A stretch of DNA of 45,356 nucleotides from a virus (IMGVR_UViG_3300040735_000029:1-45356); one strand, 5' to 3'. Shown: positions 668 to 34,297, counted from the stretch's first letter. Program-made: numbers and translations. The notes: generated from the sequence alone by a model not told the origin.

Positions 668-1066
668 CTATTCTAGGTGTAAATTCTGTATATAGGTTTT
701 AAGGGTCTGGAGTATGGCTTCTGCCTCTGTTGGATCAGAATAATACCCTCTGTCCATGTTCTTCTGTATCAACATTATTGCCATCTGAGCATACTTCAAT
801 ATCCCATACCGCAGGATGAATATGCCTTTGAGTGTCTCTGCTGCCTGAATGATATCCATCACTTCCAGCAAGAATTCAGTCTCACGCTCATAGCAGAATT
901 CTGCTATGGCTTCAAAGCACTCTTGCTCAATGTGGTCTACCTGGGCACTCAGCTTCAATTCAGCAACAAATGTAGTAACAGGGAAGTCATACTTCACAAT
1001 ATCATCAACTGCTATTGGTGTTGGGCCCATTTCCTTGTTCACTCTGCCTCCTTGGTTGTTATCCAA
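668..1066 (-). CDS. MazG-like nucleotide pyrophosphohydrolase-fold protein
   Basis: HIEQECFE...LEVMDIIQAAET acidic helical pattern and KNxxRGYY; directly downstream of the polymerase. Confidence 0.5.
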   Translation of the reverse strand: MDNNQGGRVNKEMGPTPIAVDDIVKYDFPVTTFVAELKLSAQVDHIEQECFEAIAEFCYERETEFLLEVMDIIQAAETLKGIFILRYGILKYAQMAIMLIQKNMDRGYYSDPTEAEAILQTLKTYIQNLHLE

Positions 1067-3854
1067 GCTTTCTGATTTGGGTGATGTTCACAAGCCTCCA
1101 GTCCTTCTGGGTGGTTCCTTTTATCAGGTAAAAATCACCAATCTTCCCTGTCTCAACAATTTGTTTCCCCAGTTTATTGTACTGGTAACGGCCAATCTTT
1201 GCAATTATCTTATCAGTATCATCCTCAACAGTCATATTGAGGAACAGATTGTTCTCTGTTATGACCTTACCTCCCCTCTTATTGAGTGATTCATACTCAT
1301 TCATATCACGCAAGTTTTTGACCATCAGCTTGCCTATGAATATCCAGGTGCCTTCCCCATCAATCTTATCAATGGTTGTTAAGGGCTGAGAAATGATACC
1401 ATACTTCTCAGGATTGATGAAGTAATCTTTGAATCTATCAGTCACCTCAAATATCCTGTCAAATGGTGTAACAGCATTATCCAGCAGTTTCCTCTGCCCA
1501 GGAAGCAGCTCCAGGCCCATTTTTCTCCTGGCCAGGATGGCTCTTGCTTTGGATTCTCCACATCCATGTATTCCTGTGAGGCCCCCCAGTAGCTCTCCAT
1601 CCTTAATGCTCCAGTGGATATCAGACTTGTTTACATCTACTGGAGTGAATTTATACCCCTCTTGAACCAGTTCCCTGAGCATCTTCACTGTGCTATCAGG
1701 GTCTTTTTCATTATTCAGGCAGGCAAGGGCATACTCCAGAGGATGGTGAGCCTTGAGATAAAGGCACCAGTAAGACAGCAGACCATAGGCAACAGCGTGG
1801 CTCTTGTTGAAGCCATAGGACCCAAAGGTCTGCATATTGTCCCAGATGGTCTTTGCTTCCCTCTCTGTGAGGCCATTTTCCTTGGCTCCTGCCCAGAATT
1901 TCACCCAATACTGGCCAAAGAATTCATCCCCATAGCTCTTGGACATGGCTTTTCTGAGGATTGAAATATCCTCCCAGCACATCTTGCCAACAGCAGCAGA
2001 TATTTGCATTATTTGTTCTTGGTAAACAATGATGCCATATGTCTCTTTCAGATAGGGGGCAACTGATGGATGGTCATATTCAATCTCTTTCTTTCCAGTC
2101 CTGCGCTCAACATACATCGATGCCCCACCACAATGCAAAGGGCCAGGACGGGCCAGAGATGTGATAGCAACAATATCATCAAACTTTTCAATCCTCATCT
2201 GCTTAGCAAGGGACTGTAGGGCATAGCCTTCAAGCTGGAAAATGCCGCTGAACCGTCTGTTATTGGCTAATTCAAAGGATGCCTTATCATCAAGAGGCAA
2301 GGTGTATAATTCCTTTGGGTCTTTGCCTATGTACTCCATACACAAGTTCAAGACACTCAGGGTGCGGAGTCCTAGGGCATCAATCTTGAGCATGTTCAGT
2401 TCTTCAGCATCCTTCTTGTCTATTTGAGAAACATGGTCCCTTCCAACAGTGCAGCACCTCCTGATATTGTGATTACATACCAGAATCCCTGCGGCATGGC
2501 AACCACTGTGTCTAGCATGATTCTCAATCTTCCCAACATTCATCATTGAAGGGTATTTCTTGACAAAGTCCTTGCCAACATCAAGAGATTCAAAGGTATC
2601 TGTTATACAAAAGGCTGCACGGGCATCACCTGATGACCTTTCAAGGATCGCATCCTTCACATCCTTTGTCTCATAGGCTGGGATGCCATACTTCTTTGCA
2701 ACATCTCCTATGGCTGATTTTGGCTTGTACCTGCTGACCGTTCCTATTTTTGAGACACATTCTTCCCCATACTTAGCCTGGAGATACTCATAAACCATGT
2801 CTCTCTTACTATCAGGGAAGTCCAGATCAATATCAGGCAGGTCAGAACGGGTGATGTCTATGAATCTTTCAAACAGCAGTCCATGAGGAATAGGGTCAAT
2901 CTCTGTTATATACAGAAGATAGCAGACCAAAGACCCTGCGGCAGACCCCCTTGCAGGGCCTACCAACATATGTTTCTTTGCATAGTCACACAAGTCAGCA
3001 ACAAGGTAGAAATAGTCATCAAACTTTTTGAGGGTGATAAGGTCAATTTCCCTCCTGAGCCTTGCCTCATATTCCTCAGTCCACTCCAGCTTTCTGGAAG
3101 AAATGTTATCCCTGCACATCTCTTCAATAGATTTATCCCAGTCAGAGTGAACCATTTCTGCCTGCGGGAGTGGGTATTCATCACACATATCCACAATGAG
3201 GGCTGTGTTTTCAATAGCCTCCATATGGTATCCCAGGGCTATTGCTTCTGTTTCTGATAGTATATGCTGGGGAGTTGTTTTCTGCTCAGGCCGATCATCA
3301 AGCATTTCATAGGCAATAGCATCATCAGCCTTCACATAGTATACATCGCTGGTTACCACAGCCTTGTTCCTATCTGCTGACTTTGAAAGGATGTTATTGT
3401 AGAAATTGAACCCTGGATTGAACTCAAAGAAATGGATTGGAGGCCTCATGTTCTGGGGTGGATTCTCCCCCAGTAACACAATCACATTCTCTGATAAGGA
3501 GTTTACTTGATGGATGGTTATCCTGGGGAAGTAATAGAACTGTTCATATGATTCACTATTCAGTTCATATAGCTCCTGTAAACCAGCAGGATTGCGAGCA
3601 AATACTGTAATCCCCCATGTTTTCTGTCCTCTCTCCTTATCCAGATTCTCGACTACCACCATCTGAACACCAAGTATTGGCTTGATTCCTGCCTTTTTAC
3701 AGGCCTTGTGGAACTGGGCGTGCCCCCAGGTGCTATTGTTGTCTGCTATTCCAAGGGCTTTGGCCCCTCCTGCTGATTTTATTATCTCAGGAATGGGGCC
3801 AAAGCATTTCTTGAAGCTGTATTCAGTTCTGATTTTCAGGTTTATGAAAGACAT
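1059..3854 (-). CDS. dnaE: DNA polymerase III alpha subunit (family C)
   Basis: PHP-like N-terminus (TEYS, GIKPILG), GPARGSAAGSLV, PDIDLDF, HAAG, KIDALGL, YQEQIM, FNKSHAVAY. Confidence 0.97.
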   Translation of the reverse strand: MSFINLKIRTEYSFKKCFGPIPEIIKSAGGAKALGIADNNSTWGHAQFHKACKKAGIKPILGVQMVVVENLDKERGQKTWGITVFARNPAGLQELYELNSESYEQFYYFPRITIHQVNSLSENVIVLLGENPPQNMRPPIHFFEFNPGFNFYNNILSKSADRNKAVVTSDVYYVKADDAIAYEMLDDRPEQKTTPQHILSETEAIALGYHMEAIENTALIVDMCDEYPLPQAEMVHSDWDKSIEEMCRDNISSRKLEWTEEYEARLRREIDLITLKKFDDYFYLVADLCDYAKKHMLVGPARGSAAGSLVCYLLYITEIDPIPHGLLFERFIDITRSDLPDIDLDFPDSKRDMVYEYLQAKYGEECVSKIGTVSRYKPKSAIGDVAKKYGIPAYETKDVKDAILERSSGDARAAFCITDTFESLDVGKDFVKKYPSMMNVGKIENHARHSGCHAAGILVCNHNIRRCCTVGRDHVSQIDKKDAEELNMLKIDALGLRTLSVLNLCMEYIGKDPKELYTLPLDDKASFELANNRRFSGIFQLEGYALQSLAKQMRIEKFDDIVAITSLARPGPLHCGGASMYVERRTGKKEIEYDHPSVAPYLKETYGIIVYQEQIMQISAAVGKMCWEDISILRKAMSKSYGDEFFGQYWVKFWAGAKENGLTEREAKTIWDNMQTFGSYGFNKSHAVAYGLLSYWCLYLKAHHPLEYALACLNNEKDPDSTVKMLRELVQEGYKFTPVDVNKSDIHWSIKDGELLGGLTGIHGCGESKARAILARRKMGLELLPGQRKLLDNAVTPFDRIFEVTDRFKDYFINPEKYGIISQPLTTIDKIDGEGTWIFIGKLMVKNLRDMNEYESLNKRGGKVITENNLFLNMTVEDDTDKIIAKIGRYQYNKLGKQIVETGKIGDFYLIKGTTQKDWRLVNITQIRKLG

Positions 3855-4387
3855 ATGATTCCTTTCCTGAACAATATCTCCGCCAGTTCCCTGAGCATCT
3901 CCACATCCCCCATAGCTCTGTGGCTATTAACTTGTGGTTTTCCAGTGAAGTGTGTAAATGCTTTCCCAAGGTTCATACGCTTGTTGCTGATGTGCTTTGT
4001 ATGTTCAACTGTACAGATGTATTTTACCCCCCAGTTAATACAGTCAAGTGCACCTGCCCTATCCATATCATTCCTGAGCATATTGATATCAAACATCACA
4101 TTGTGAGCTATGATATGTGTACAGTCAGCAAAAAACTCCTTCAATTCATCAACATACCAGTTGAAAGGTTTTGCAGAGCAGACATCAGAGTCCTTGATCC
4201 CTGTGATTTTTGTTATCTCTGGAGGCAGCTTGAATCCAGGATTACAGAAGAATTCAATCCTGTCTGCCTCCTTGAAATCATGATCTGTTTTGATGGCTGC
4301 AAATTCAATGATCCTGGGTTGGTTGCATAGTGGTGCTCCTTTTGGGAGCAACAGGCCTGTGGTTTCCGTATCAAATAGGATTATCAT
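3842..4387 (-). CDS. DEDDh 3'-5' exonuclease (DnaQ/epsilon-like)
   Basis: FDTETTG, AHNVMFD and HRAMGDV motifs. Confidence 0.93.
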   Translation of the reverse strand: MIILFDTETTGLLLPKGAPLCNQPRIIEFAAIKTDHDFKEADRIEFFCNPGFKLPPEITKITGIKDSDVCSAKPFNWYVDELKEFFADCTHIIAHNVMFDINMLRNDMDRAGALDCINWGVKYICTVEHTKHISNKRMNLGKAFTHFTGKPQVNSHRAMGDVEMLRELAEILFRKGIICLS

Positions 4388-4658
4388 CAGTAACTCTCAG
4401 CCAGATTATAGCATTCACAGACATAGCAGCCATATCCTTGAACAAATCTTCAAGGGTTTCACCCTTAACATGATAGTGGCCATTCTTTGTGATATTATTA
4501 AGCCTTTGCATTTTGCGACCAAGGTCCATACAGACAGCTAGAAGGCCAAACTCATTATATGTTTCTATAAAAGAGTCCCCATAGTCTTTGTTTTTGGCTG
4601 CACGGAGTTGACTTATTTCATCCATGATTTTATCAAACTCTTCCTGGGTGTTTGACAT
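4371..4658 (-). CDS. DUF1599 / nucleotide-modification-associated domain 1 protein
   Basis: KNKDYGDSF...RL...ETLEDLFKDMA pattern. Confidence 0.75.
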   Translation of the reverse strand: MSNTQEEFDKIMDEISQLRAAKNKDYGDSFIETYNEFGLLAVCMDLGRKMQRLNNITKNGHYHVKGETLEDLFKDMAAMSVNAIIWLRVTDDNPI

Positions 4659-4729
4659 GTAACAGCTCCTTTATTTTGATTTGTGGATAGCAGAATTGAA
4701 CTTCAGTCAAAGTTGTGCATTTCAGCTAT

Positions 4730-5407
4730 TCACACTGCCTTATGGAGAGTTTTGCACATACCAGATCCATTGGCAAACCTTTTGCACATACAGTCAAGAG
4801 GCACTGTAAGAATAGGATTCACATCTCTCAAAGCATTTCTCATGCCTTCAGCAACATATCTCCATTCCTCCTGGGCAGCAACACAAAGCCTCTGCTTGAG
4901 CAGGCCTATCAAGGCGCGATATGTACAAGCAAATGTGATGGGGGATTGAACATTCAAAGGCAGCAGTCCACGGGCATCTTCCTGTGTTTCACCTCTGCTC
5001 AGGGCATCTCTGTATGACTGCTGAATCATGAGCATTTCTTTGTGGTACATCAGTTTGTCTTTGACAGATGCCGGCAAGTGGTATGCCCTGTTATCTGCAA
5101 ACTTGGCACATTCAACAACACGCAGGGACTGGATGCTATAGGAGAAGCCAACCCGATGTCTGGTCAGCTGCTGCTGGAAAGCCCTGGAGCAGTTCTCAAG
5201 CACCCATACAAGATTGACATACTCAAAAGGGGTCTGGTGGGGTTGTTTAAGTAGCCACATAAACTTTTCTATGAGCTGCTCTTCAGTCCAGTGGTCAGGG
5301 CTGGTAGGAATTTTCTCAGCATGCCACGCATCAATGCCAAGTGCAATGCACTCAAGAGGGTTACTTGTGATACTGAACAATGTGACTTTTGGGATCATAC
5401 TCTGCAT
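4730..5407 (-). CDS. thyX: flavin-dependent thymidylate synthase-like protein
   Basis: HQTPFE, RHRVGFSYSIQSLR, EDARGLLP and QRLCxxAQEEWR motifs. Confidence 0.88.
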   Translation of the reverse strand: MQSMIPKVTLFSITSNPLECIALGIDAWHAEKIPTSPDHWTEEQLIEKFMWLLKQPHQTPFEYVNLVWVLENCSRAFQQQLTRHRVGFSYSIQSLRVVECAKFADNRAYHLPASVKDKLMYHKEMLMIQQSYRDALSRGETQEDARGLLPLNVQSPITFACTYRALIGLLKQRLCVAAQEEWRYVAEGMRNALRDVNPILTVPLDCMCKRFANGSGMCKTLHKAV

Positions 5408-5426
5408 AATTTGGCTCCTTTTCTAG

Positions 5427-6380
5427 TTATTTTACATTACAGAGCACAGCACCTTTTTGGCCCAGTTCACTCTGCTTGATCAACTCGCACAAGAACTTGG
5501 TATCATCCCAGACATCATTGGCCACCTTAAATGACCAAGACCCATATCTGCCCAGGAACAGCATATTGTACTTGGCAGTCAGATGATAGAAAAGGTGCTT
5601 TCTTTGCTCTCTGTCTATTGGATCAAACCTTCCTGTCATTGTCATTTTGTTATCATCAGTAAGGCTTAACCCAAATATCTTGTGGAATACAATATAGTCC
5701 AGGGGATCATATGTTGAGCATTTTGATTCCACATATATCTTGTCATCTATCAAGGTCATTCTTGACACTTCACATTTCGGGCAGCAGTTGTATATCATCT
5801 GATACATACCAGTGCTGTAACCAATATTTACAACATTCATCTCATTCTTATATGTTGTAAACTTTATATCACAGTCAATACTGGACATCTTAAAAAATTT
5901 GGGCAGGGATATTGTGTTAATCAGATACCTGTATTTCACTAATTCAGAATTAAGATATATGCTGTGATCAGTTGGGTGGATGATATCTGCATGTGCTGTT
6001 ATAATATCTGCAGGGGATTTAAGGGCTTCACAGAGCACATCCTTGGATACTGGGTAAATGCTTTCTTGCTGCTGTTGGTGGAAGTTCAAGATATTGCTGG
6101 GCTTAAGCTTTCCATAAATTTTCTGTGCATACACATTGACATCCTTTGGGGTTATCTCCCCAGTAAGGATGTTGTCTGCATATATCCCCAGAAGAAATTT
6201 GGTAGCCTTCCACTCCAGATTCAACTCTGGGATGGGCCTGTGTAGGTGAAAAGGGTGCTCCCTATCCACAGAATCAGTTATGATGACCACTGATATATCA
6301 GGAAGCAGAAGTGATAACTGCTTTGCCATCATAAGACCAGATACGCCACCACCAAGGATGGCAATATCATAGATTTTCAT
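5427..6380 (-). CDS. FAD-dependent oxidoreductase (UDP-galactopyranose mutase/HemY-like fold)
   Basis: DIAILGGGVSGL Rossmann motif, INTISLP, C-terminal LGRYGSW; start reassigned to the ATG at 6380 with a GGAGG RBS. Confidence 0.8.
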   Translation of the reverse strand: MKIYDIAILGGGVSGLMMAKQLSLLLPDISVVIITDSVDREHPFHLHRPIPELNLEWKATKFLLGIYADNILTGEITPKDVNVYAQKIYGKLKPSNILNFHQQQQESIYPVSKDVLCEALKSPADIITAHADIIHPTDHSIYLNSELVKYRYLINTISLPKFFKMSSIDCDIKFTTYKNEMNVVNIGYSTGMYQMIYNCCPKCEVSRMTLIDDKIYVESKCSTYDPLDYIVFHKIFGLSLTDDNKMTMTGRFDPIDREQRKHLFYHLTAKYNMLFLGRYGSWSFKVANDVWDDTKFLCELIKQSELGQKGAVLCNVK

Positions 6381-6457: not shown

Positions 6458-6958
6458 TTACATCTGCTCAGGGGCTTCGGCCAGGGCTTGCTCCTGGGCC
6501 GGGGCTTCAGCCAGGACTGGTGCAGCAATGCTGGTTACAACTGCTTTTCCGTCAGCCACAAGGCTACGAATGTTACCAAGGGCAACAGTCTTGGTGATGC
6601 CGAGCTTCTCAGCAACTGCCTGGGCGCCAACCTCGCCAAGTTCCTTAAGAGCACCATAGACGGCAGTGCGAATGGAGTTGGGACGGTTGATCTTGTTCTC
6701 CAGAGCTTTGAAGATGGAATCAGGGTGGACATAGGCATGCTTGCCTTCCCCCTTCTTGGCATGTTTGCGTTCTTTCTTCTCAGCACCTTCAGTAGCTTCA
6801 GCACCAGCAGTGCCTTCAGCCAGAGTGGCTTCAGCACCAGCAGTGCCTTCAGCCAGAGTGGCTTCAGTAGCTTCAGTGGCTTCAGCCAGAGTGGCTTCAG
6901 TAGCTTCAGTGGCTTCATCCATTGTTTCAACCTCCAAAGTTTTCTGTTTTCTTACCAT
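6458..6958 (-). CDS. winged-HTH DNA-binding protein with acidic Ala/Glu/Thr repeats
   Basis: EATEATEATLA/EGTAGAEATLA repeats then RTAVYGALKELGEVGAQAVAEKLGITKTVALGNIRSLVADGK; AAAGGAG RBS before the ATG at 6958. Confidence 0.7.
   Translation of the reverse strand: MVRKQKTLEVETMDEATEATEATLAEATEATEATLAEGTAGAEATLAEGTAGAEATEGAEKKERKHAKKGEGKHAYVHPDSIFKALENKINRPNSIRTAVYGALKELGEVGAQAVAEKLGITKTVALGNIRSLVADGKAVVTSIAAPVLAEAPAQEQALAEAPEQM
6786..6917. repeat. coding tandem repeats (30-bp units)
   Basis: ttcagccagagtggcttcag recurs four times. Confidence 0.85.
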
Positions 6959-7039: not shown

Positions 7040-8464
7040 TTATATGTTGTAACTGAATTTAGTCTTTGGCAGAATTATATGTAAAGATTTTGCGGCACGA
7101 GTTGCACCAACATACCAGACACGGTGCTCATGGTCAGGGAATCTCTCTTTTGTATAGTGGGTTTTTAGTGAAATATCAGTCACTAATGCAACATTATCAG
7201 CCTCTCCACCTTTAACTCCATGGATTGTGCTGATGTGAACTCTTGGCTCTTTTGTTATCTTTTCACCCCTTCTCAACAGGGATATGTAATAGTCCCTATC
7301 ATACTCAGGTATTCCAGTTAATACCTCGTGCCATATCTTATTGCTGGACCAGATATCATGGCAATTACGTGGCATGAATTGATCAGCAAATAGCATTTCC
7401 TCTGTGGTAATAGGGGTGCCCTTCCTATGAGCCTCCCATATCATTATTGCTTTCAGATGCTGCTTGTTTACAGATGAGCCTCCCCTGAATGAAAAATAAA
7501 CTCCTTGATCCCTGCAGACACGAGCCAGAGCAGAAAGCATATATCCATTCCTTGCCAGTAGAAGCCAGGAGCCAGATGAAAAGTCAACATCATCAGCCCT
7601 GTGATAAAAGTCAACAGACCCTTGTTCAGCCTTTGGATGATATACCTTGGGCATCCTCATGTTGATTCTTTCTGCTATCTCCATAGCAAGAGTATGGATC
7701 TTGCGCGGAATCCTATGAGATTGGGATAACACCCTTCTCTCACCCTCCATATTGAGAAAGTGCTTTACATCTGCTCCTGCCCAGGTATAGATTGCTTGAT
7801 CATCATCCCCTGCAATATACATCCTCTCAGCAGTCCTGAACAGGGATGCAGCCAGCTTCCATTGGGCAGTTGAAAGGTCTTGGGCCTCATCTATGATTGC
7901 CACTTTTACTGGGATGGCAGTATCATGAACAAATAGCATATCACAAAAGTCTATCAGGCCATTATCATTCTTGTATTCAGTAACTGTATTAACATACCTC
8001 TTGAATTCAAACCAATCAAGGGTGTCTTCATCCCTGAGCATATCCCAGACTGTTTCAAATGTCAGGCCCCTTGCCCTGGCAAAGTTGTACATATAATTGT
8101 AATAGTCACCTTTGTGCCTTGTGGATAGAGCACCCTCCATTATATCAGACATGGTATCCCTGGAGAATTCAATGCCCAGCATCTTACCAATTTCATCATA
8201 ATGATTTGAGGCCATCACTTGGTCTCTGTGACAACCTCTTACCTGATAGGCAATACTATGGAATGTTCTGATCCAGGGGAAGTCTTTGGGGGCAAGTCTG
8301 AATGTATCAATTACCCTTTGCATTGCCTCTTGTGTTGCCTTCTTGGTAAATGAGACAAAAGCTATTTCCTCAGGTTCAACACCATTCTCCATCTCCTTTT
8401 CCATGATGTCAATCAAGGTTGTGGTTTTGCCAGTCCCTGGTGGCCCAGCTATTATCTGTATCAT
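7040..8464 (-). CDS. UvrD/Rep-like SF1 helicase
   Basis: GPPGTGKT, VSFT, DEAQD, GDDDQAIY, QSHR, TIHGVKGGEAD, YVGATRA. Confidence 0.95.
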   Translation of the reverse strand: MIQIIAGPPGTGKTTTLIDIMEKEMENGVEPEEIAFVSFTKKATQEAMQRVIDTFRLAPKDFPWIRTFHSIAYQVRGCHRDQVMASNHYDEIGKMLGIEFSRDTMSDIMEGALSTRHKGDYYNYMYNFARARGLTFETVWDMLRDEDTLDWFEFKRYVNTVTEYKNDNGLIDFCDMLFVHDTAIPVKVAIIDEAQDLSTAQWKLAASLFRTAERMYIAGDDDQAIYTWAGADVKHFLNMEGERRVLSQSHRIPRKIHTLAMEIAERINMRMPKVYHPKAEQGSVDFYHRADDVDFSSGSWLLLARNGYMLSALARVCRDQGVYFSFRGGSSVNKQHLKAIMIWEAHRKGTPITTEEMLFADQFMPRNCHDIWSSNKIWHEVLTGIPEYDRDYYISLLRRGEKITKEPRVHISTIHGVKGGEADNVALVTDISLKTHYTKERFPDHEHRVWYVGATRAAKSLHIILPKTKFSYNI

Positions 8465-10011
8465 TAGAATTCCTCCGGCAATGGTTCTGGGGGATCAAAA
8501 TCCTGGTCTTGCCTCTTAAATGCAGGTATAGACCAGCATGAAACACAGGCACCTTTGATCATAAATTTGTGATGTTCAGCACCCCTCCTTCTCAGGATAG
8601 CATAGATTTCACGTTCTTTGAACTCCTTGAACCTGTTGGTATCAAGGTATCTTGTGAACTCTGTTGACCTGAAGTATACCCTATCATTATTTGTCCACGG
8701 CTTGCCAAGTTTCAATTCATCCTGTGTTCTTGCCTGTACCCTCCCTGTACAGTAGTTTTCAAGGTGGATCCAAAGCTGCCCTTCAGGGCCTGCATCTCCA
8801 GCAAGTTCATAAGTATCAGCAGATGATAAAAGCTCATTCATCTTATTGGCCCATCTGTTTTCATCTACAGGCAGGTTCACCCTTTTGAACATTTTCAGGA
8901 ACTGCCTGTTAAACTTTATTTGGCTAGTGACCATATCAATAGTCACATCAAACTCTGTTCCATTGATATTGAATACCCAGTATGGCTCATCAGAACTTCC
9001 GATAGCAGGTTCATAGCACTTGACAGGTTTTTCAACTTCATCAAGGATGCAAGGCCGAGTCACCTTCTGGGTGGCTCCACTTTTGTAGCTGCCAGACTCA
9101 CTGATCAGCCCATACTTTCTGGTAAAGCAAAGAGCTTTGTTACAGTATCCACAGATTGGTGGCTCTTGACATCTGTAAACATACTTCTTCTTGTCCAGAC
9201 TTTTGATTACCTGCTGGACTTCTTGAGCTGACCCTGGGCCAAGGAATCTCTTATTGTAATCATAAAGTTTCACGTGCCAGTCTTCTGGGAACTTCATCCT
9301 TGCATATACCCCCAGGTCAAACAAGGCATTGTTCATGCTGCCCCCTGGGAATCCCTGGGCAACAAGTATTTCCAAGCAAGGAGGGGCATCGCTGAATTCA
9401 GCTTCAGGAATCACAATCTCAGGTAGATCAGATTCCAACACCCTTATGGAATTGGCAAAATCAAGAAAGCCAACTGCACACAGACGTTCACCCTTGCTAA
9501 TACAGAATCTGTCTGTATCATCTACATTAAAGTAAGGCATATTGATCCAGTTGCCAATATCCCTCTTTGGATCAATAGTGTCTTGTTTAGGGAAAATCTC
9601 AGCAGCAGGGTGACCAAGTGATACTGCTATTTCTTTGAGCTTGCTGCGGATAATGCTGGAGGGTATTGGTTCTGCGGTAAATATGAATATGTGTGCTCCA
9701 CCAGACTTGCTTCTACAAACTGCTAGTGGCCAAGAGTGCCTCTCAATTGTTTCTGTGAGAGATATGATATCAAAGTTATCATAGTTATCAATATCAATAG
9801 CACCAAATGATACTGTGCTATCCTCTTTTATGGGCACTATGCCCAAGCCCTTGATTCCGCTGAGATGTAGCTCCCAGTTCAGGGCAGTGACTTGTTTCTT
9901 TACAGTCTTTGCTTTGCCTTTTGCCTTCTTGCCAGCCTCCACTTTTGGGGCATCATATTCTCCATAGGCTAATGACAGACCTGAAAATAATTCCATGAAT
10001 TTGTTGACCAT
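8464..10011 (-). CDS. archaeo-eukaryotic-type primase (AEP) with Cys-rich C-terminal region
   Basis: AIDID, RSKSGGAH, EIFPKQ, GNWINMPY, PPCL, C-x5-C-x2-C-x4-C; start reassigned to the ATG at 10011 (GGAGG RBS). Confidence 0.85.
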   Translation of the reverse strand: MVNKFMELFSGLSLAYGEYDAPKVEAGKKAKGKAKTVKKQVTALNWELHLSGIKGLGIVPIKEDSTVSFGAIDIDNYDNFDIISLTETIERHSWPLAVCRSKSGGAHIFIFTAEPIPSSIIRSKLKEIAVSLGHPAAEIFPKQDTIDPKRDIGNWINMPYFNVDDTDRFCISKGERLCAVGFLDFANSIRVLESDLPEIVIPEAEFSDAPPCLEILVAQGFPGGSMNNALFDLGVYARMKFPEDWHVKLYDYNKRFLGPGSAQEVQQVIKSLDKKKYVYRCQEPPICGYCNKALCFTRKYGLISESGSYKSGATQKVTRPCILDEVEKPVKCYEPAIGSSDEPYWVFNINGTEFDVTIDMVTSQIKFNRQFLKMFKRVNLPVDENRWANKMNELLSSADTYELAGDAGPEGQLWIHLENYCTGRVQARTQDELKLGKPWTNNDRVYFRSTEFTRYLDTNRFKEFKEREIYAILRRRGAEHHKFMIKGACVSCWSIPAFKRQDQDFDPPEPLPEEF

Positions 10012-10033
10012 TAAACCCCTCCCCAGAACAAGC

Positions 10034-10062
10034 AAAAATAGGGGGCCATTTCTGGCCCCCTA
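10034..10062 (-). terminator. Rho-independent terminator after the putative SSB gene
   Basis: 10-bp stem tagggggcca/tggcccccta with a U-tract on the - strand. Confidence 0.75.
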
Positions 10063-10076
10063 CAGGCACTGACCTG

Positions 10077-10865
10077 CTAGAAGTTATCTTCTGCCCCAGC
10101 CCCATCATCAGAAGCAGACACTTTACCAGCCTTGATAAGGGCCATAAACGCTTTTGCCATATCATACTGGCTACGGTCCTGAATCTGGGAAACGTGCTCA
10201 ATCTTCCATCCCATCCAGGTTCCCTTGTCATTGGGAGGGTCAGCAACAACAGTCAGCCGGTATATCTGGCTGAACATAGGCAGAGTCTGCCCTTTTGTCT
10301 TGATATTGGTCATCATGGACATCCATTTCTTTGACTTCTTGATCTGGGTGCTTGACATGCTAATCAGTGCAGGTTCAAGTGCCCCATCATCCTTGATGAC
10401 CAGAACGTAATGCTGGCGAGCATCAGATATAACATTCCCATTGGCATCAACTTCAACAGTCTGCCCCTTATCATTGGTAACATTCCGCTTCCGGCAGCAA
10501 GTATACTCTGCAATGCTGAGCCTTCCCCTCAGACCAGCCCTGCCAGGCGCCCAGAGCAGATAGATATGCTCATATGAGCAGGGGATGACCAAGATGCCTT
10601 TGGTGCCATCAATGATTTCCTCAGTAACGGTGTTGAAGATGTGCCCCTCTTCAGCCCCTTTGATGTAGCCAGCATCAGACTTCTTGACCTGGGGGGACAT
10701 TGCCTGGAGGATACGCAGGAAAGGTATAGCATAGCTGTCAGAATCAGCATTCTCAAAGCCAGCACCCATATCCTCAGCAAAGTCAACAACAACAGGAGGG
10801 GGAGCAGGTTCAGTTGTAATAACATCCTTCTCAGTCACAACTTTCTCTTCAGCAGCTTTTGCCAT
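10077..10865 (-). CDS. putative single-stranded DNA-binding/annealing protein
   Basis: IPFLRILQxxSPQ and MSSTQIKKSKKW, acidic tail ending in F; position in the replication block. Confidence 0.6.
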   Translation of the reverse strand: MAKAAEEKVVTEKDVITTEPAPPPVVVDFAEDMGAGFENADSDSYAIPFLRILQAMSPQVKKSDAGYIKGAEEGHIFNTVTEEIIDGTKGILVIPCSYEHIYLLWAPGRAGLRGRLSIAEYTCCRKRNVTNDKGQTVEVDANGNVISDARQHYVLVIKDDGALEPALISMSSTQIKKSKKWMSMMTNIKTKGQTLPMFSQIYRLTVVADPPNDKGTWMGWKIEHVSQIQDRSQYDMAKAFMALIKAGKVSASDDGAGAEDNF

Positions 10866-10877
10866 GGGTAATCTCCT

Positions 10878-11432
10878 TTACTTGATTATTGCTTTTTTGT
10901 ACTGGTGGATATTGAAAATATCCTCAGGAAACTCATTGCCTTTTGACAACCCCTCTTTGATTGTTGCCTTCAGGGTCTGTGGATGGACAGAAAGATTCTC
11001 CACAGCATCATATCCACAGTTCTTGCAAACCTCCAGAAGGGCAGCAGCCTTGTCCCTATCCCCTTTGCCAAATTTGACTTCCACCTTTGGCTTGATAATG
11101 CCACTATAACCATGGCATTCAAACCATTCAAGGGCAGCTTCTGATTTATTAGCCTTGATGCTGGCAGCAACATCATCCTTGATCTCAATCTTGGAACCAC
11201 TTATCAACTTGAAAGATTTGACTCCTGCCTGGGCCATTGCTTCAGGGAGCAGGTATTCCTGAATGTTGCGGAGCTTTTCTTTGGCTGATAAGAGCTTTTC
11301 TTCCATCTGCTGGATATGCTTCTGCCATTCAAGCTGGGCCATTGCCAGGGCTGAAATATCTCTTACATCATTAGTGCTGACCTCTATATTAGTATCAGCA
11401 GCATCAGAAAGCATCAGATCAGCAAGTTCCAT
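10878..11432 (-). CDS. conserved phage replication-module protein (coiled coil, LPEAM...VHPQTLKA)
   Basis: family pattern seen next to SSB in related podoviruses; AAGGAG RBS before the ATG at 11432. Confidence 0.65.
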   Translation of the reverse strand: MELADLMLSDAADTNIEVSTNDVRDISALAMAQLEWQKHIQQMEEKLLSAKEKLRNIQEYLLPEAMAQAGVKSFKLISGSKIEIKDDVAASIKANKSEAALEWFECHGYSGIIKPKVEVKFGKGDRDKAAALLEVCKNCGYDAVENLSVHPQTLKATIKEGLSKGNEFPEDIFNIHQYKKAIIK

Positions 11433-11676
11433 CAGCTTTCTCCTTGCTATACATTGGTAAGATTCTATTACTATCAGCAATGATCATCACATCACACTCA
11501 CCATCAACAGGCAGGTAGTCATATTTACACATCTTGCCATTAAAAGAGGCTTCAATCGGTTGGGAACCAATAAGGACACTTGCAATGTATCCAGCACACT
11601 TTGGATCCAGGGGTTTAGTCATAAATTGGGCCAAATGATTATGACTCTTGAAAAGAATACGCACTTTTTCACTCAT
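11419..11676 (-). CDS. hypothetical protein
   Basis: ORF coupled to both neighbours. Confidence 0.6.
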   Translation of the reverse strand: MSEKVRILFKSHNHLAQFMTKPLDPKCAGYIASVLIGSQPIEASFNGKMCKYDYLPVDGECDVMIIADSNRILPMYSKEKADGTC

Positions 11677-12029
11677 TCTTCAGTTCTCCTTTTGGCACAG
11701 TTAAGGTCAACTTGCACTTCGATGTAACGCTTGGCATCTCTGTCCCACTTCAGTAGCTTGCACCTCCCATTGTTTATTTCAGAGACAACCATTGCTGCGA
11801 TGAATATGGCAGAAGGGTCACCAACTGATACCATATAGTCATCATCTGTGAAATTGCGCAATTGATACTTGAGAGCTGAAACTGTCGGCCCTGGGGCAAG
11901 AGATACCCTGCCATGAGGCAAACAGACCACAGGATCACCATACTCAAGCACCTTCCGAAAGTCCATAACAGGGGCTAAAACATTGCCTTCCCTGCGCATG
12001 GGTTCCTGAATGATATAGCACTTTGGCAT
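11673..12029 (-). CDS. conserved phage hypothetical protein
   Basis: AAAGGA RBS and upstream promoter; DDYMVSVGDP...LKWDR pattern. Confidence 0.7.
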   Translation of the reverse strand: MPKCYIIQEPMRREGNVLAPVMDFRKVLEYGDPVVCLPHGRVSLAPGPTVSALKYQLRNFTDDDYMVSVGDPSAIFIAAMVVSEINNGRCKLLKWDRDAKRYIEVQVDLNCAKRRTEE

Positions 12030-12058
12030 CTTTTTGTCCTTTCAGTTCTAGTCCAGAG

Positions 12059-12087
12059 AGTATATCTTTGGGAAAAATTAAAGTAAA
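12059..12087 (-). promoter_or_regulatory. sigma70-like promoter
   Basis: TTTACT-17-TATACT. Confidence 0.65.
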
Positions 12088-12108
12088 GAGGGATTTTAAA
12101 TCAGCTAT

Positions 12109-13617
12109 TTAAAGCCAGCTGTCTAATGGATCATCACCAGTAATGACATCTGCAATGTTACGTTTGTTGCGAAGAACAGTTACAATTGTCTCATCAATAG
12201 TGTCAGATGCTATCATGTCAACATACAGGACACTCTTGGTCTGTCCAATGCGATGTGCCCTATCTTCTGACTGTAACCTATTCTCCAGAGAAAAATCATT
12301 GCTGTAATAAATGACTGTGTTGGCTGCGTGAAGGGTCAAACCCTTCCCACCAGCCTGGACATGGCCTATGAAATACTTGACTGCAGGGTCTTTCTGGAAC
12401 TTTTCAATGTTGAGAACCCTGGTTGAAGGGTCCACTCCTCCATGGTATTCAACAATTGATTGAAAACCATACTTCTGGCCTATTGCTAAGGCAATAGATT
12501 CAATCTCAGCACGAAACCTGGCCCAGATGATAACTTTTCCCTGGGTATCTTCAAGAAAGTCCATCAGAGACTGCACTCTTGAATTAACAAGATCAATAGG
12601 CTCTGGCCTGTGAACAATTTGTGGAGCTTCAGGCATATCACCAAGTTGATCAAAGTCAATGTCCAAGTCAACCAACTCCTGATCCTGGACAAAGAATCCA
12701 CCAACAATCTGCTGGAGGCGCAGGATTTTTGTCAGCCCCATTGTAGCAGACATGAACTTGCCATTGAACTCTGCAATAATGCTCTTTTTCAAGTCAGTGT
12801 ATATTCTTTTCTGACTTGGAGATAGTTCAACATACAGCTTTGTGTATACCTTTTCAGGCAGATCAAGGCACTCATCCTTTGTCACCCTAAATGAATGAGG
12901 TGATATAAGAGATTGCAGTTCATCAAGGTTAACATAGCTCTGGACAGTTTGGAATGTCCGACCATTGGATTTGACCTCCTTCATGACTGCATACCTGCCC
13001 CTGAAGGCATAATAGCTTTGAGTCTGCAGAATGTAAGGGTCAAGGAACTGGAACTGCGAGAATACATCCAAGGGGCCTTGTGTAACTGGAGTCCCTGTGA
13101 GAATCCTTCTGTATCTAGCTTGTTTGGCAATCTTTAACAGGGCCTTTGTCCTGATTGCCTTGTGGTTCTTGATTATGGTGCTTTCATCAACAACAATCAT
13201 GCTTCTCATTGAGTTGACCAGGTTGCCTATGATTGTTTGGCCCTTCTTGGTGGCCAAGGCTTCAATGTTGAAAGCCAATACCTTGAGGCCAAATTTGGAG
13301 TTGAGAACAGCATTGATCTTAGCCTCTTCAGCCTTTGTCATGCTGCTACGGTAGATTGCTGCTTGAACACAGTAATGCTCAGGAGCATGGGTTGGTATCT
13401 CATTAACTACCCAGTTGGTGTGAACTCCATTAGGGGCAATAACAATGAGAAGATCAATCTCTCCCTTGCCAAACAGCCAGCATGCAGTGTCTATGGCTAC
13501 CTTTGTCTTACCAGTCCCTTGCTCCATGAACAAGGCAAAACTGTCTCTGTCCCTGGACAGCAGGAATGCCTGCTCCTGATGCTTAAATGGGGTTGTCTTG
13601 TAAACATATTCAGTCAT
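12109..13617 (-). CDS. SNF2-family helicase
   Basis: EQGTGKT, DEST, LTGTP, LRLQQI, GKGLTL, QSEDRAHRIGQ. Confidence 0.95.
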   Translation of the reverse strand: MTEYVYKTTPFKHQEQAFLLSRDRDSFALFMEQGTGKTKVAIDTACWLFGKGEIDLLIVIAPNGVHTNWVVNEIPTHAPEHYCVQAAIYRSSMTKAEEAKINAVLNSKFGLKVLAFNIEALATKKGQTIIGNLVNSMRSMIVVDESTIIKNHKAIRTKALLKIAKQARYRRILTGTPVTQGPLDVFSQFQFLDPYILQTQSYYAFRGRYAVMKEVKSNGRTFQTVQSYVNLDELQSLISPHSFRVTKDECLDLPEKVYTKLYVELSPSQKRIYTDLKKSIIAEFNGKFMSATMGLTKILRLQQIVGGFFVQDQELVDLDIDFDQLGDMPEAPQIVHRPEPIDLVNSRVQSLMDFLEDTQGKVIIWARFRAEIESIALAIGQKYGFQSIVEYHGGVDPSTRVLNIEKFQKDPAVKYFIGHVQAGGKGLTLHAANTVIYYSNDFSLENRLQSEDRAHRIGQTKSVLYVDMIASDTIDETIVTVLRNKRNIADVITGDDPLDSWL

Positions 13618-13913
13618 TATTCAGCCTCTTCATCAACAGCATTGGAAAGTCTGTTAATGTCTCTCTGGATAAGGATTTCTGCCCTGGCAAGAATATTGGC
13701 AGTCTGTTCCTCCAGAATCTGCTTCTGGGCAAGTAGGACATACTCTGCCCTGAACTCAGCATCATCACTGGAATCACTTGCACCTCCAGTTACAAGCCTA
13801 CCATCTGTATGACCATTGGCTTCAGCAACAGCTGCCTTTGCTTCTTTCAGCTTTTCCACCAGTGCCTTACAGCTGATTTTCCTGAAACTGCCCTTGCTCT
13901 TGATGTATATCAT
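13617..13913 (-). CDS. hypothetical protein
   Basis: AAGGAG RBS; coupled to the helicase start. Confidence 0.65.
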   Translation of the reverse strand: MIYIKSKGSFRKISCKALVEKLKEAKAAVAEANGHTDGRLVTGGASDSSDDAEFRAEYVLLAQKQILEEQTANILARAEILIQRDINRLSNAVDEEAE

Positions 13914-13922
13914 ATCATCTCC

Positions 13923-14030
13923 TTACTGGCAAGGGGAATAACCACAGCTGGAACAGAACCAGCATCCACTTGCAAATGTCATTCTTGCTCCACAGTCAGG
14001 ACACAATCCATCCCTCGGCTTAATTCCCAT
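13923..14030 (-). CDS. 35-aa zinc-ribbon protein MGIKPRDGLCPDCGARMTFASGCWFCSSCGYSPCQ
   Basis: translated by hand; AAAGGA RBS; fills the operon gap; CxxC...GCxxCxxCGYSxC. Confidence 0.7.
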   Translation of the reverse strand: MGIKPRDGLCPDCGARMTFASGCWFCSSCGYSPCQ

Positions 14031-14505
14031 GATGTTTTCCTTTCAGTTCAGATTCACCTTTGGCAAATTGATTTGGAAATTGATTCTGGCTCAGGATATC
14101 AAACAGTTCCCTGAACTCAATCTTTTTCTCCCAGTGCTTAAACTTGTACCATTCAGCTTTTGGCAGTCCTTGAAATGTCTGGATCACTTGTTTGTAGTCA
14201 AGAATGAAGAATGTATCAGCAATCCTGACTAAAACCCAAACTCCACCAGCAATGGCCCCTCTTCCCATAATCCAAATCTTCTGTTCCTGTCTCAGGGGGA
14301 GTTTGATAAGAGTGTCTTCTTTCTTTGGCCATTCAGGAATATATTTCAACTCCATGAAGCCATGTCTTGAATTCCTCTTGAGGACACTTGGCAGAGTGAA
14401 TACAACATCAGGTATGCCATTCCCTGCACTGGACTCTATCCTGGAGGCAAGCCAGAAGCTCTTCATACCCTCCTTAATGTATTTCCAGACTCCAGCTTCA
14501 TTCAT
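14020..14505 (-). CDS. PD-(D/E)XK nuclease (VRR-NUC/Holliday junction resolvase-like)
   Basis: RIE...GIPDV...FMELK...LRQEQKIW. Confidence 0.8.
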   Translation of the reverse strand: MNEAGVWKYIKEGMKSFWLASRIESSAGNGIPDVVFTLPSVLKRNSRHGFMELKYIPEWPKKEDTLIKLPLRQEQKIWIMGRGAIAGGVWVLVRIADTFFILDYKQVIQTFQGLPKAEWYKFKHWEKKIEFRELFDILSQNQFPNQFAKGESELKGKHHGN

Positions 14506-21379: not shown

Positions 21380-21825
21380 GGCTGTATCTCCTTCACATAG
21401 TGCTTTTCAACAAGACAATACCCTCTGCGGGCATATATCTTTTCCAGTACATCAGGGAATGAATCTGAGAGGTGTATCAAAGCCACCTTCTCACATTCCT
21501 GGTCCTTGGCCCATTCTTCAAAAACTCCAAGCAGCTTTATGCCATGACCTCTGTATTCTTTATCAACAAACCAGAATGTCTCAACTGCCACCATAATCCC
21601 TGAGTGAATATCAGGATATGCAACTCCTGCTATTCCTCCAACTACCTTGCCATCAATCTTCAGGGCAAACATACAGCCAAGCCCAGATTCAATGAATGAT
21701 GTGTAATTCTTTATGCAAATAGCCACATCAACAATGACGTGTTTGGAATACTCAAGCTGATATGCCCTGCCTAAATGGCATAGCTTAATGACTTCTTCAT
21801 TGGTAGCAGGAGTTATCTCAATCAT
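21376..21825 (-). CDS. GNAT acetyltransferase
   Basis: WFVDKEYRGHGIKLL...FEEWAK...IYARRGY. Confidence 0.88.
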   Translation of the reverse strand: MIEITPATNEEVIKLCHLGRAYQLEYSKHVIVDVAICIKNYTSFIESGLGCMFALKIDGKVVGGIAGVAYPDIHSGIMVAVETFWFVDKEYRGHGIKLLGVFEEWAKDQECEKVALIHLSDSFPDVLEKIYARRGYCLVEKHYVKEIQP

Positions 21826-22873
21826 TGTTTGCCTCAGGAAAGCAATACATGCCCCTCTGTTTTATGTAATCTGTGAACTCAACAACCAATGGCTGATTCT
21901 TTACAGGATTGGCATTTACCCCACAGAATTTCTGGAGATATACTGGGAACACATTCCAGGGACGGGCCTTCAGGTCTTCAAATTCAGCAGCTACATCAGA
22001 TTCAGTTTCACCCTCAAATCCCACGATAACATTGCCATGGTATCCAACATCATTGGCTTCAAGAATTGATAAGCCATTCTCAATCTGTTCCACTGTAATG
22101 TTCTTATTCATCTTGTCCAGCTTTTCCTGGGAGAAGGATTCAATCCCAACAATACAATAGACAAGGCCGGACCTTTTGGCCAACTTGATAACAGAATCTG
22201 TAATATTATCAAGTCTCAGGGCACAGGTCCAGGCAACACCTTTGTTAAGCATCATCCTACATATGGCTTCAAATCTATTTAAATTTGCATTGAGAGTATT
22301 GTCATTGAATACAATCATGTCAAGCTGGTATCTGCTTATGTAATAATCAATCTCTTGCTCAACAGCAAGCAAATTTCTCACCCTAAAAGGGGAGATACTA
22401 GAGCAGAAGGAACAACTGTGAGGACAGCCTCTTGATGTAAGGACTCCCATGTATTTACATGGGTGCCTTCTATGATATTCAGATATGCCAAAGCCAACAT
22501 AATCAGGCCAAGGGATATTGTCAATAGGCAGGTAGCCATCAAACTCCCCACCATAAAGGCAGTTGATATGGTTAACCATCTTTTCAGGAGTATATGTTGC
22601 CAGTCCTCCACCAAGGTGGGTGCAGATGCCCTTTTCCCTGCAGATACTGGCAACTCTCTTAATCTCAGATTCAAACTCGCCATATCCTGTGAAGAAGACA
22701 TTGGAGACACCAACAAGCTCTTTCTCCAAGTCATAGTCAAACAGATTACAGTTGAGCACTTTGACTTTGTGACCATATTCTTTGAGAGCTGCAGAAACAT
22801 ACATAAACCCAAGTGGATAGCAGCAAGGGTCATCAAGTGATACATCATATTTGGGAAGATATAACAGGACCAC
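21818..22873 (-). CDS. cobalamin-binding radical SAM enzyme (class B methyltransferase-like)
   Basis: YPLGFMYVSAALKEYGHKV B12-domain start, GGGLAT, TSRGCPHSCSFC, FNDNT, GIES, VGFEGET. Confidence 0.9.
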   Translation of the reverse strand: MVLLYLPKYDVSLDDPCCYPLGFMYVSAALKEYGHKVKVLNCNLFDYDLEKELVGVSNVFFTGYGEFESEIKRVASICREKGICTHLGGGLATYTPEKMVNHINCLYGGEFDGYLPIDNIPWPDYVGFGISEYHRRHPCKYMGVLTSRGCPHSCSFCSSISPFRVRNLLAVEQEIDYYISRYQLDMIVFNDNTLNANLNRFEAICRMMLNKGVAWTCALRLDNITDSVIKLAKRSGLVYCIVGIESFSQEKLDKMNKNITVEQIENGLSILEANDVGYHGNVIVGFEGETESDVAAEFEDLKARPWNVFPVYLQKFCGVNANPVKNQPLVVEFTDYIKQRGMYCFPEANND

Positions 22874-29932: not shown

Positions 29933-30604
29933 TTATTTCCATACATCATATGGAGGCCCATGTTTCTGGTAATGCTGGGTTGTTTCATAGATGCCTTCCA
30001 GGTTCTCACCAGGCCATTTTATGAGCAGCTCAAGGTGGCCAATGACGAGCCTGGGGGCAACATATAACTGTAAGCCACAGTTTTTGAAGTTGTCCCAGAA
30101 ATATATGTCATCATCCAGCTTATTTCCAACCCTCTTCCACTCTCCATCTTCATCAGGTCTTGACCAGAACCAGGGCTTTTTCAGCTGTTTAAGCACAGAG
30201 GCCCTGAAAATTGTAAGGCCAAAATGTCCAGTAGCCACAGGAACCAAGGCATTGTTCTTCAACTCATTGTATGACAGAGTTCCTTTTTCAGTAGTCAACA
30301 ACAAGCCAGAGAAACGCCCCATCTGCATACAGCAGATAGCATCAGCATGTTCATTCTGATCCATCAGGCGGATTAACTGGGCAACAGTCTCACCAGTGAA
30401 AATGCTATCATAGTCAGTGGTTATGATATACTCATATCCATCATCCAGTGCCCCTTGGATGCCTCCTGTGAGTGACTGGGACCAGAACACACCATACAGG
30501 TTCCGATAATCAATCTTGTTCACAGCAAAGGCAGCAATGGATTGTCCCATGAAGTCCATGTATCCAAGTCTTGGGCAGGAGCAGAGAGCAACAGTCTTTT
30601 TCAT
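29933..30604 (-). CDS. GT-A fold (family 2-like) glycosyltransferase
   Basis: TTDYD DxD motif, GHFG...KPWF, DDIYF, IGH. Confidence 0.8.
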   Translation of the reverse strand: MKKTVALCSCPRLGYMDFMGQSIAAFAVNKIDYRNLYGVFWSQSLTGGIQGALDDGYEYIITTDYDSIFTGETVAQLIRLMDQNEHADAICCMQMGRFSGLLLTTEKGTLSYNELKNNALVPVATGHFGLTIFRASVLKQLKKPWFWSRPDEDGEWKRVGNKLDDDIYFWDNFKNCGLQLYVAPRLVIGHLELLIKWPGENLEGIYETTQHYQKHGPPYDVWK

Positions 30605-31056
30605 TTCTTGTACCCCATCAGGTTAAGTGAGAAGTTATATGATGCACAATCAGCAATTTCACTCTGCCAGGTTCTGATGCCATACAACCCAATGGACTCC
30701 ATGATGAACCTGAGCTTGTTACAGCTCCAGAGGGACTTGTGGTAATCATACTTATCAGTCTGACCTCCAAACAGGATACATTCATAATTGAGAGGTTCAC
30801 CTGCCTGGTATCTCCTAATGAGATCATCAAAATCAGGGACGGCAATTTTGATCACCCCACCAGGAACGAGACAGTCCACCCAGTTGAGCAGGACCTGAAC
30901 TGATTCTTCATGCCCAAAGTGTTCCAGCACGTGAGATGCCCTTATCTCATCAACACAGCCCTTGTACTCAAGGGGATAGATGGATAACCCATCAAGAGCA
31001 TCCATGTTGATATAACCTTCAAGCTTGTTCTGACCACAGCCAAGATTAAGTTTCAT
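30601..31056 (-). CDS. class I SAM-dependent methyltransferase
   Basis: KLNLGCG, ASHVLEH, LVPGG...VPD; start reassigned to the ATG at 31056 (GGAGG RBS). Confidence 0.88.
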   Translation of the reverse strand: MKLNLGCGQNKLEGYINMDALDGLSIYPLEYKGCVDEIRASHVLEHFGHEESVQVLLNWVDCLVPGGVIKIAVPDFDDLIRRYQAGEPLNYECILFGGQTDKYDYHKSLWSCNKLRFIMESIGLYGIRTWQSEIADCASYNFSLNLMGYKK

Positions 31057-31076
31057 GTCACCTCCAATAGACATTT

Positions 31077-33997: not shown

Positions 33998-34297
33998 TTA
34001 TTTTATGATACAAGTGATGTCTTCATCATTGAGCAGACGGAAAACCTCTTTGGTCTCAGGGTCTTCAATGACAAAACCACCATATTTTGCAAAAGCAACC
34101 TTATCACCAACTTCAGCCCAGGCTTCACCATCATCAAATGCCTTCCAGGCATTAGGGCCAACAGCTACCAGAGTGCCAAAAATATTGGCCTCAGTCTGTT
34201 TTTCAGCAATTGTTTTGGGGATGTAAATACCACCAGCAGTCTGGCTTTCAACTTCATCAACTTTCACCAGGACTCTATGACCTGCAGGCTTAAGCAT
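33998..34297 (-). CDS. groES: co-chaperonin GroES (Cpn10)
   Basis: LKPAGHRVLV, TAGGIYIP, VAVGP, VGDKVAFAKYGG, LLNDEDI. Confidence 0.93.
   Translation of the reverse strand: MLKPAGHRVLVKVDEVESQTAGGIYIPKTIAEKQTEANIFGTLVAVGPNAWKAFDDGEAWAEVGDKVAFAKYGGFVIEDPETKEVFRLLNDEDITCIIK

Follow-up and report, generated by a model that had tools for sequence, protein, structure and literature searches.

A six-gene block in a podovirus-type virus genome as a candidate minimal cassette for a sugar-bearing thymidine analogue

The DNA analysed here (IMGVR_UViG_3300040735_000029, hereafter the window) is an entire virus record of 45,356 bases with direct terminal repeats, and its virion genes (Hc3 closure, Ad3 adaptor and ejection protein) are of the podovirus type. 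At positions 668-6380 it carries a block of six consecutive genes, all on the minus strand. The initial annotation of this DNA had proposed the block as a base-modification pathway tied to a dedicated polymerase, and open reading frame (ORF) and domain calls bore out its order, orientation and position:

5427..6380, minus strand: UGM-like FAD protein (UGM, UDP-galactopyranose mutase) of the phrog_4828 family; 317 aa from ATG 6380, with GxGxxG
4730..5407, minus strand: ThyX-fold flavoprotein of a subfamily without Tyr91; 225 aa; Thy1 PF02511, E 4.5e-32
4371..4658, minus strand: small helical DUF1599/Nmad1 protein; PF07659, E 1.4e-5, barely above cut-off
3842..4387, minus strand: DnaQ-like DEDDh proofreading exonuclease; PF00929, E 2e-26; phrog_192; DTETTG and HRAMGD motifs
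1059..3854, minus strand: family-C DNA polymerase DnaE; PF07733, PF17657, PF02811, PF14579
668..1066 as called, or 668..1030 from the probable ATG 1030 (120 aa), minus strand: orphan all-alpha ORF 668; no Pfam or PHROG family

The product of 4730-5407 was confirmed as a ThyX-fold protein with a Thy1 domain, and its motif reads RHRVGFSYSIQSLRV, as described earlier. This motif had been called atypical on two counts, of which one stood. The RHR-x8-S spacing was rejected as an oddity, since two of the four parsed ThyX controls from phages have x8 spacing together with SxRY. In contrast, the loss of the tyrosine (SLRV) is real: Tyr91 is missing in 117 of 117 parsed relatives of the window ThyX (the best 120 of 134 found by similarity to the query, three of them not parsed), whereas SxRY is present in all 28 correctly parsed cellular controls (30 loci, with one unparsed and one spurious match) and in the four parsed phage controls (eight loci, four unparsed). 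Compared with the enzyme of Thermotoga maritima, the window protein retains H53, E58, Q75, R78-H79-R80, S88, R90, R147, R165 and R174, and hence the RHR-x7/8-S motif and the dUMP/FAD residues (R78, R80, S88, R90, R147 and R174), while Y91 is changed to V97 and E86 to I92. All 42 aligned relatives have the equivalent of R174 (R173). In T. maritima, Y91 assists water loss from the flavin carbinolamine, a step that its mutation slows 100-1000-fold, and R174 activates dUMP (PMC8316439, PMC11940539). From these residues we infer that dUMP is still the substrate of this ThyX and that normal methylation is not its main job. Because the uracil-activating arginine is retained, the base produced would most likely be a T analogue.

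For the flavoprotein at 5427-6380, Pfam recognised the FAD motif alone and a single-protein scan of viral contigs gave no matches. In PDB profile searches, UGMs ranked first when 27 close sequences including the query were used (E 2.5e-5), and with 38 wider sequences UGM took the first 14 places (best E 2.3e-12), ahead of the next family at 1.9e-5. Similarly, UGM was the top Foldseek match (E 2.6e-11) of an AF2 model with a pLDDT of 91, and VIA-align placed UGM (Z 19.3, rmsd 4.0, 299 residues aligned) ahead of the next family (Z 17.2). The UGM fold, the FAD-binding GxGxxG and the C-terminal GR(F/Y)GxW are all present. R207, invariant in homologue alignments A1 and A3, aligned with the arginine of the UGM PFYR motif (R327 of Aspergillus fumigatus), which we take to be the substrate-diphosphate arginine, and the R327A structure of UGM scored lower in the profile search (44.1 versus 49.9 bits). 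The uridine- and galactose-binding domain and the flaps of UGM lie in a region left unaligned in that search, and the flavoprotein is far shorter. Sequence and model thus identify the protein as a homologue of UGM; because it is much shorter than eukaryote-type UGM we call it UGM-like, and not a UGM. It is predicted to activate a nucleoside diphosphate sugar (NDP-sugar). The earlier idea that two flavoenzymes make a non-canonical pyrimidine is thereby refined, in that the chemistry now points to a sugar. UGM-like homologues (362 phage records) are core genes of Pbunavirus, Wifcevirus, Myosmarvirus and Carpasinavirus, where gp072 of Wifcevirus Mansfield already has an HHpred-based annotation as UGM, and they occur in some Rhizobium phages and in the podoviruses Ss1 and VA-RY-3. 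A C-terminal dUTPase-like domain is found on 12 of the 38 aligned UGM-like proteins, and Pfam dUTPase_2 was detected in two of the four fusion tails tried.

Scans with the ThyX alignment yielded 109 loci (27 viral, the best 80 of 113 metagenomic, and 2 genomic; labelled L and a number where needed), which formed 89 clusters at 90% identity. The 44 clusters with at least 4 kb upstream were counted and the other 45 were left out. Two of the 44 were canonical ThyX, without a UGM-like gene and without DnaE. In the 42 non-redundant subfamily loci, a UGM-like gene lay near ThyX with a strong match in 34 and a weak one in 2 more, and a DUF1599-like domain was present in 33; the profiles of these two families were iterated on the same loci, so that their E-values are partly circular. 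DnaE was likewise present in 33 of the 42. The gene-neighbourhood check proposed in the initial annotation therefore revealed strong linkage. A whole-record search for the UGM-like gene recovered three of three positives (all members of the query alignment) and none in eight control ThyX phages. Together with the UGM-dUTPase fusions and the modified thymidine of Pbunavirus relatives described below, this co-occurrence supports a base-modification pathway tied to the phage family-C polymerase. The podovirus setting had also been put forward as unusual. The podovirus-type head and tail genes are real, but the context is not a novelty, since the cultured podoviruses Ss1 and VA-RY-3 carry the same block.

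Among 147 selected proteins scanned as a survey of accessory genes, neighbours in related loci included dUTPase with 5'-nucleotidase, dCMP deaminase, YfbR, HAD, SDR and glyoxalase genes, as well as methyl-, sulfo- and glycosyltransferases. As none of these accessory genes lies inside the window block, it represents a minimal form of the cassette. Several related loci showed further arrangements. Sulfotransferase genes lie within the cassettes of VA-RY-3 (L002:21766-22521) and L032 (L032:11013-11804), which suggests that the modified base may be sulfated in these two. In L099 (L099:4087-8014), genes for a TAGT-like glycosyltransferase, a Gfo/Idh/MocA oxidoreductase, a hexapeptide acyltransferase and a DegT aminotransferase lie between the UGM-like and ThyX genes, a predicted amino-sugar synthesis insert. 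In the closest relative, L006 (ThyX 81% identical), DnaQ and DnaE are inverted and lie between two DUF1599-like copies (L006:12627-15241), and an HNH gene separates the UGM-like gene from ThyX. The cassette also occurs on L121, a contig of 45.5 kb that is filed under a Woesearchaeota metagenome-assembled genome and looks like a binned phage.

The link to a modified base comes from cultured relatives. The Pbunaviruses F8 and 14-1 carry the entire block, and their DNA has been reported to contain thymidine derivatives (362 Da in F8, 390 Da in 14-1) that replace about a quarter of T in a TG context and were interpreted as a tetritol and a cyclic pentose derivative (bioRxiv 2025.03.31.646159). The available text of that preprint assigns no genes to these bases, and its authors noted that homologues of known modification genes would miss them. 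In the F8 and 14-1 stretches fetched, T before G makes up 27-28% of T; since about a quarter of T is replaced, nearly all TG sites are possibly modified. The masses fit 5-hydroxymethyl-deoxyuridine (hmdU) with an O-linked sugar and, equally well, deoxyuridine (dU) to which a pentitol (362) or a hexose (390) is C-linked, and the 362 formula equals that of the dihydroxypentyl-dU (DHPU) nucleoside of phage SP-15 plus two oxygens. A difference in gene content was rejected as the origin of the two masses, as F8 and 14-1 have an identical gene set in the block; their most divergent block enzyme is the HAD+DUF1599-like protein (84.6% identity), and small ORFs are 78-96% identical.

Other phages with altered thymidines offer a parallel. 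Thymidines with long C5 linkers are known from SP-15 and YerA41 (PMC12686479, PMC13697223). SP-15 carries two ThyX genes and is reported to make its base before DNA synthesis (PMC5977210), and a title in the reference list of the same paper tells of a ribose label entering the SP-15 base. We found that SP-15 gp130 (L124:45026-46911), which adjoins the SDR gene gp129, and YerA41 gp081 (L126:13236-14399) are homologous divergent ThyX proteins (25% identity, E 1e-19); by their sequences they are candidates for linker attachment. Wifcevirus isolates resist most restriction systems without known protection (PMC11990801), and passages of PMC13307970, PMC7824862 and PMC9931769 contributed nothing further on modification in the relatives. 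A literature search, with most subscription journals outside its scope, returned no paper assigning these genes to base modification. The gene block in sequenced phages and the modified base in two of them are already known; the link between them was absent from the papers that this search listed.

The remaining proteins of the block bear on how such a base would reach DNA. The initial annotation had both all-alpha proteins, DUF1599 and ORF 668, purging a canonical dNTP, and this was not supported. The metal motif of MazG follows the pattern EExxE ... ExxD. Across 27 aligned DUF1599 relatives, R52 and D75 never vary and K49 hardly does, conservation is limited to these three and G27, and neither the EExxE motif nor an ExxE cluster is present. 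A homologue of DUF1599 forms the C-terminal domain of the Pbunavirus 'polynucleotide kinase/phosphorylase' (L010:20772-21836, L011:20940-21956), which by iterated profile is a HAD phosphatase followed by a DUF1599-like domain and in which no P-loop kinase match was found. Because the Pbunavirus protein also contains it, we count the DUF1599-like domain as core. In three loci (Ss1, VA-RY-3 and L032) its slot is filled by DUF3310, fused to HAD in the first two, a domain implicated in the nucleotide kinase activity of T7 gp1.7 (PMC10700055). As a gp1.7-family domain takes the slot and no other dNMP kinase turned up in the window proteins that were scanned, this gene displacement makes a kinase role for DUF1599 more likely than a dNTP purge. 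In addition, dTTP cannot be fully purged, since only about a quarter of T is replaced in F8 and 14-1.

ORF 668 has coding-like codon use and probably starts at ATG 1030. It shows the MazG-like pattern QECFE...EVMD...KNxxRGYY, in which Q replaces one E of the metal motif, but no Pfam or PHROG family matched it, and neither the protein collection (other than itself) nor the fetched related loci contained a homologue. Its similarity to MazG runs through two weak steps, from ORF 668 to an Eggerthella phage domain (tblastn E 6, 19.8 bits) and from that domain to a Bacillus phage 'MazG-like pyrophosphatase' (E 0.03), and its Atlas model has a pLDDT of 0.53. The MazG-like identity assigned earlier is weakly supported; ORF 668 is an accessory gene and not a core one. 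DnaE has the PHP, NTPase, finger and HhH domains of a family-C polymerase and intact catalytic aspartates (PDIDLD at 340, DALGL at 492). Where HxHxxYS would be expected in its PHP domain it has KIRTEYS, and this domain is likely inactive.

What was observed (the identities of the genes, the altered residues, the co-occurrence and the homology to core genes in phages with such a base) underlies the reading that we favour, with slightly better than even confidence: the cassette would make a C5-sugar derivative of dUMP before replication, and DnaE would insert the product at a fraction of the T sites. Chemistry at the nucleotide level is suggested by the dUTPase fusions and by the kinase-family slot. 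If this reading holds, a first step is quite probable in which the UGM-like enzyme, with reduced FAD, displaces NDP from a host NDP-sugar to give a flavin-N5-sugar adduct or a furanose donor; carbon adducts at flavin N5 are the working mode of both ThyX and UGM. In the second, the Tyr91-less ThyX would keep dUMP as its substrate, leave reductive methylation unfinished and join the sugar to C5, with the chances evenly divided between a direct C-C bond of the sugar to C5 and a sugar hydroxyl that traps the C5-methylene. Under the same premise, the balance is even on whether DUF1599 phosphorylates the bulky dNMP as T7 gp1.7 does, and it is doubtful, though conceivable, that ORF 668 trims dUTP. 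Incorporation of the modified nucleotide by DnaE, possibly only before G, is a step to which we give somewhat less than an even chance. The purpose of the modification is likely protection from restriction enzymes.

Several points weigh against this reading, the main difficulty being the TG context, which is easier to reconcile with a transferase acting on DNA than with a polymerase fed from a nucleotide pool. Six of the 42 loci have no UGM-like gene (L025, L059, L061, L065, L093 and L108), some of them with short flanks, and the subfamily locus L016 retains the tyrosine (SMRY) next to a UGM-like gene. The Pbunavirus ThyX is changed further, with H53, H79, S88 and Y91 all lost; the window ThyX keeps the first three and so is possibly nearer to a normal enzyme. 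The window is also only distantly linked to F8 and 14-1, at 17% identity for the UGM-like protein and 27% for ThyX, and since these two phages are near-identical in the same proteins (97% and 94%), the core alone offers no obvious explanation for the 28 Da difference. A whole-record search of limited sensitivity found no UGM-like gene in SP-15 or YerA41, a weak negative, and SP-15 gp131 is not UGM-like. Homology between DUF1599 and the DUF3310 domain of gp1.7 was undetectable by hhalign, with a probability of 0.05% against a five-sequence DUF3310 alignment and K-x-x-R alone aligned, and DUF3310 occurs near ordinary ThyX too. Finally, shared descent of a replication module can produce co-occurrence in tailed phages.

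Of the alternatives, the one that survives best, although we consider it unlikely, places sugar transfer after replication: ThyX would supply 5-hydroxymethyl-dUMP (or T would be activated in some other way), the UGM-like enzyme would provide an NDP-furanose donor, and a transferase working on DNA would then attach the sugar at TG sites. Points in its favour are the TG context seen in F8, the retained H53 of the window ThyX, a folate-stacking residue, and phage RL38JI, whose UGM makes UDP-galactofuranose for DNA glycosylation (PMC13326640). GT2, GT9 and TAGT genes are present in some related cassettes, but the conserved core has no transferase. A GT-A-like gene is present in the window itself (29933-30604; PF00535 E 0.0014, short of the cut-off); however, this gene lies among capsid genes and has no homologue in the related loci searched. 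Further, no hmdU peak is reported for F8 or 14-1 in the available text of bioRxiv 2025.03.31.646159, and the fusions and kinase-family slot indicate chemistry on nucleotides.

We rate as rather improbable that ThyX is a slightly odd dTMP synthase serving the phage replisome, with the UGM-like protein acting on a non-DNA target or riding as a passenger in an inherited replication module. Most catalytic and binding residues of ThyX are retained, no second ThyX-family thymidylate synthase was found in this genome, L016 has the tyrosine, and phage UGMs could serve surface glycans. Nevertheless, the tyrosine is lost across the subfamily, some UGM-like proteins are fused to a dUTPase-like domain, the linkage persists across unrelated phage types with differing flanking replication genes, and the cultured members tested have modified T. 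Action of the cassette on dCMP instead of uracil is very improbable: it would match the extreme CpG depletion of the window (odds ratio 0.18, with TpG at 1.42) and the methyltransferases of some related cassettes, yet R173 is invariant in 42 of 42 relatives, some related cassettes carry dCMP deaminase, and the CpG ratio exceeds 1.1 in four phages that have the cassette (F8, 14-1, Mansfield and MTx).

As to base composition, the CpG ratio of the window ranges from 0.11 to 0.35 in 5-kb blocks, TpG and CpA are both in excess, and TGCA, CATG and GATC are likewise under-used. CpG depletion also appears in several related environmental loci (L031 0.08, L063 0.12, L058 0.13) and not in Pbunavirus, and it suggests that the host methylates CpG or restricts DNA at CG sites. 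TG enrichment was rejected as a general signature of the cassette, as the TpG ratio is 0.99 in F8 and 14-1.

Going back to the dUMP-level reading that we favour, a bolder version of it can be drawn, which we hold to be improbable. The two flavoenzymes would work as a relay through flavin-N5 adducts that ends in a direct C-C bond between the sugar and C5 of dUMP, amounting to a 'sugar-alkylating thymidylate synthase' that needs no folate; DUF1599 would be a new dNMP kinase, and the polymerase would read the next template base and accept the modified T only before G. If true, such a scheme would account for the Pbunavirus bases and hint at the route by which SP-15 builds its ribose-derived pentyl chain.

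Outside the block, a replication module lies upstream:

7040..14505, minus strand: upstream replication module with UvrD helicase, AEP primase, Pam3 gp34/33/32-like genes, SNF2 helicase and a phrog_2165 protein

Its gp33, gp34 and SNF2 genes are common to Pbunavirus, Myosmarvirus and Carpasinavirus. Just upstream of the UGM-like gene, 6458-6958 encodes an acidic Ala/Glu/Thr repeat protein with an HTH-like C-terminal part; L006 has a homologue at the equivalent place, and Pbunavirus has other low-complexity proteins there (F8 gp066). Elsewhere in the window, a GT-A-like glycosyltransferase and a methyltransferase gene directly after the major capsid gene (29933-31074) possibly serve virion glycosylation, a B12-binding radical SAM gene (21818-22873) adjoins a GNAT acetyltransferase among tail and ejection genes, and a GroES co-chaperonin is encoded (33998-34297) close to the genes for capsid and scaffold.

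Few phages are used in therapy as often as the Pbunaviruses of Pseudomonas, and the sugar-bearing thymidine of these phages determines how sensitive they are to restriction enzymes and END nucleases. The window holds the smallest version of the best candidate cassette, with three genes in about 2 kb before the polymerase. If the favoured reading is true, it would give ThyX its first role beyond dTMP synthesis and DUF1599 a function, many environmental phages would be predicted carriers of a new family of T hypermodification, and these hypermodifications would vary with accessory SDR, methyl-, sulfo- and glycosyltransferases.

When set against known systems, the cassette resembles the DHPU-type thymidines of SP-15, YerA41 and Carin-5 in the carbon chain that would be placed on uracil C5 and in the divergent ThyX of SP-15 (gp130) and YerA41 (gp081). 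Those phages differ in having a family-A polymerase with uracil-DNA glycosylase, a ThyX that is longer and of another kind, and further glycosylation, and no UGM-like gene was detected in SP-15 or YerA41. RL38JI differs in that its UGM is of the conventional kind and is paired with a cytosine hydroxylase of ThyA type and with glycosyltransferases recognisable as such (PMC13326640). The window ThyX shares with T. maritima TM0449 the fold, the RHR motif, S88, R90, R147, R174 and H53; unlike it, it has V for Y91 and I for E86, and a UGM-like gene travels along that is missing in control ThyX phages. The flavoprotein has the fold, FAD motif, R327-aligned arginine and GR(F/Y)GxW of eukaryote-type UGM (PDB 4dsg, 3ute), but it is some 150-190 residues shorter than these, with 10-13% identity. 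Cronobacter phage Ss1 and Vibrio phage VA-RY-3, with genomes of 40-42 kb, have UGM-like, ThyX, DnaQ and DnaE genes in identical order; in contrast to the window, they have HAD+DUF3310 in the DUF1599 slot and a different helicase/primase set, and VA-RY-3 adds a sulfotransferase. The Pbunavirus cassette (in F8, gp065 UGM-like, gp059 ThyX, gp057 HAD+DUF1599-like and gp056/055 DnaQ/DnaE) is 17-27% identical to that of the window, in which DUF1599 stands alone without HAD, SDR or glyoxalase, ThyX retains H53, H79 and S88, and the virion genes are podovirus-type. Both nevertheless share the four core components in identical order, the SNF2, gp33 and gp34 genes, and a ThyX without Tyr91.

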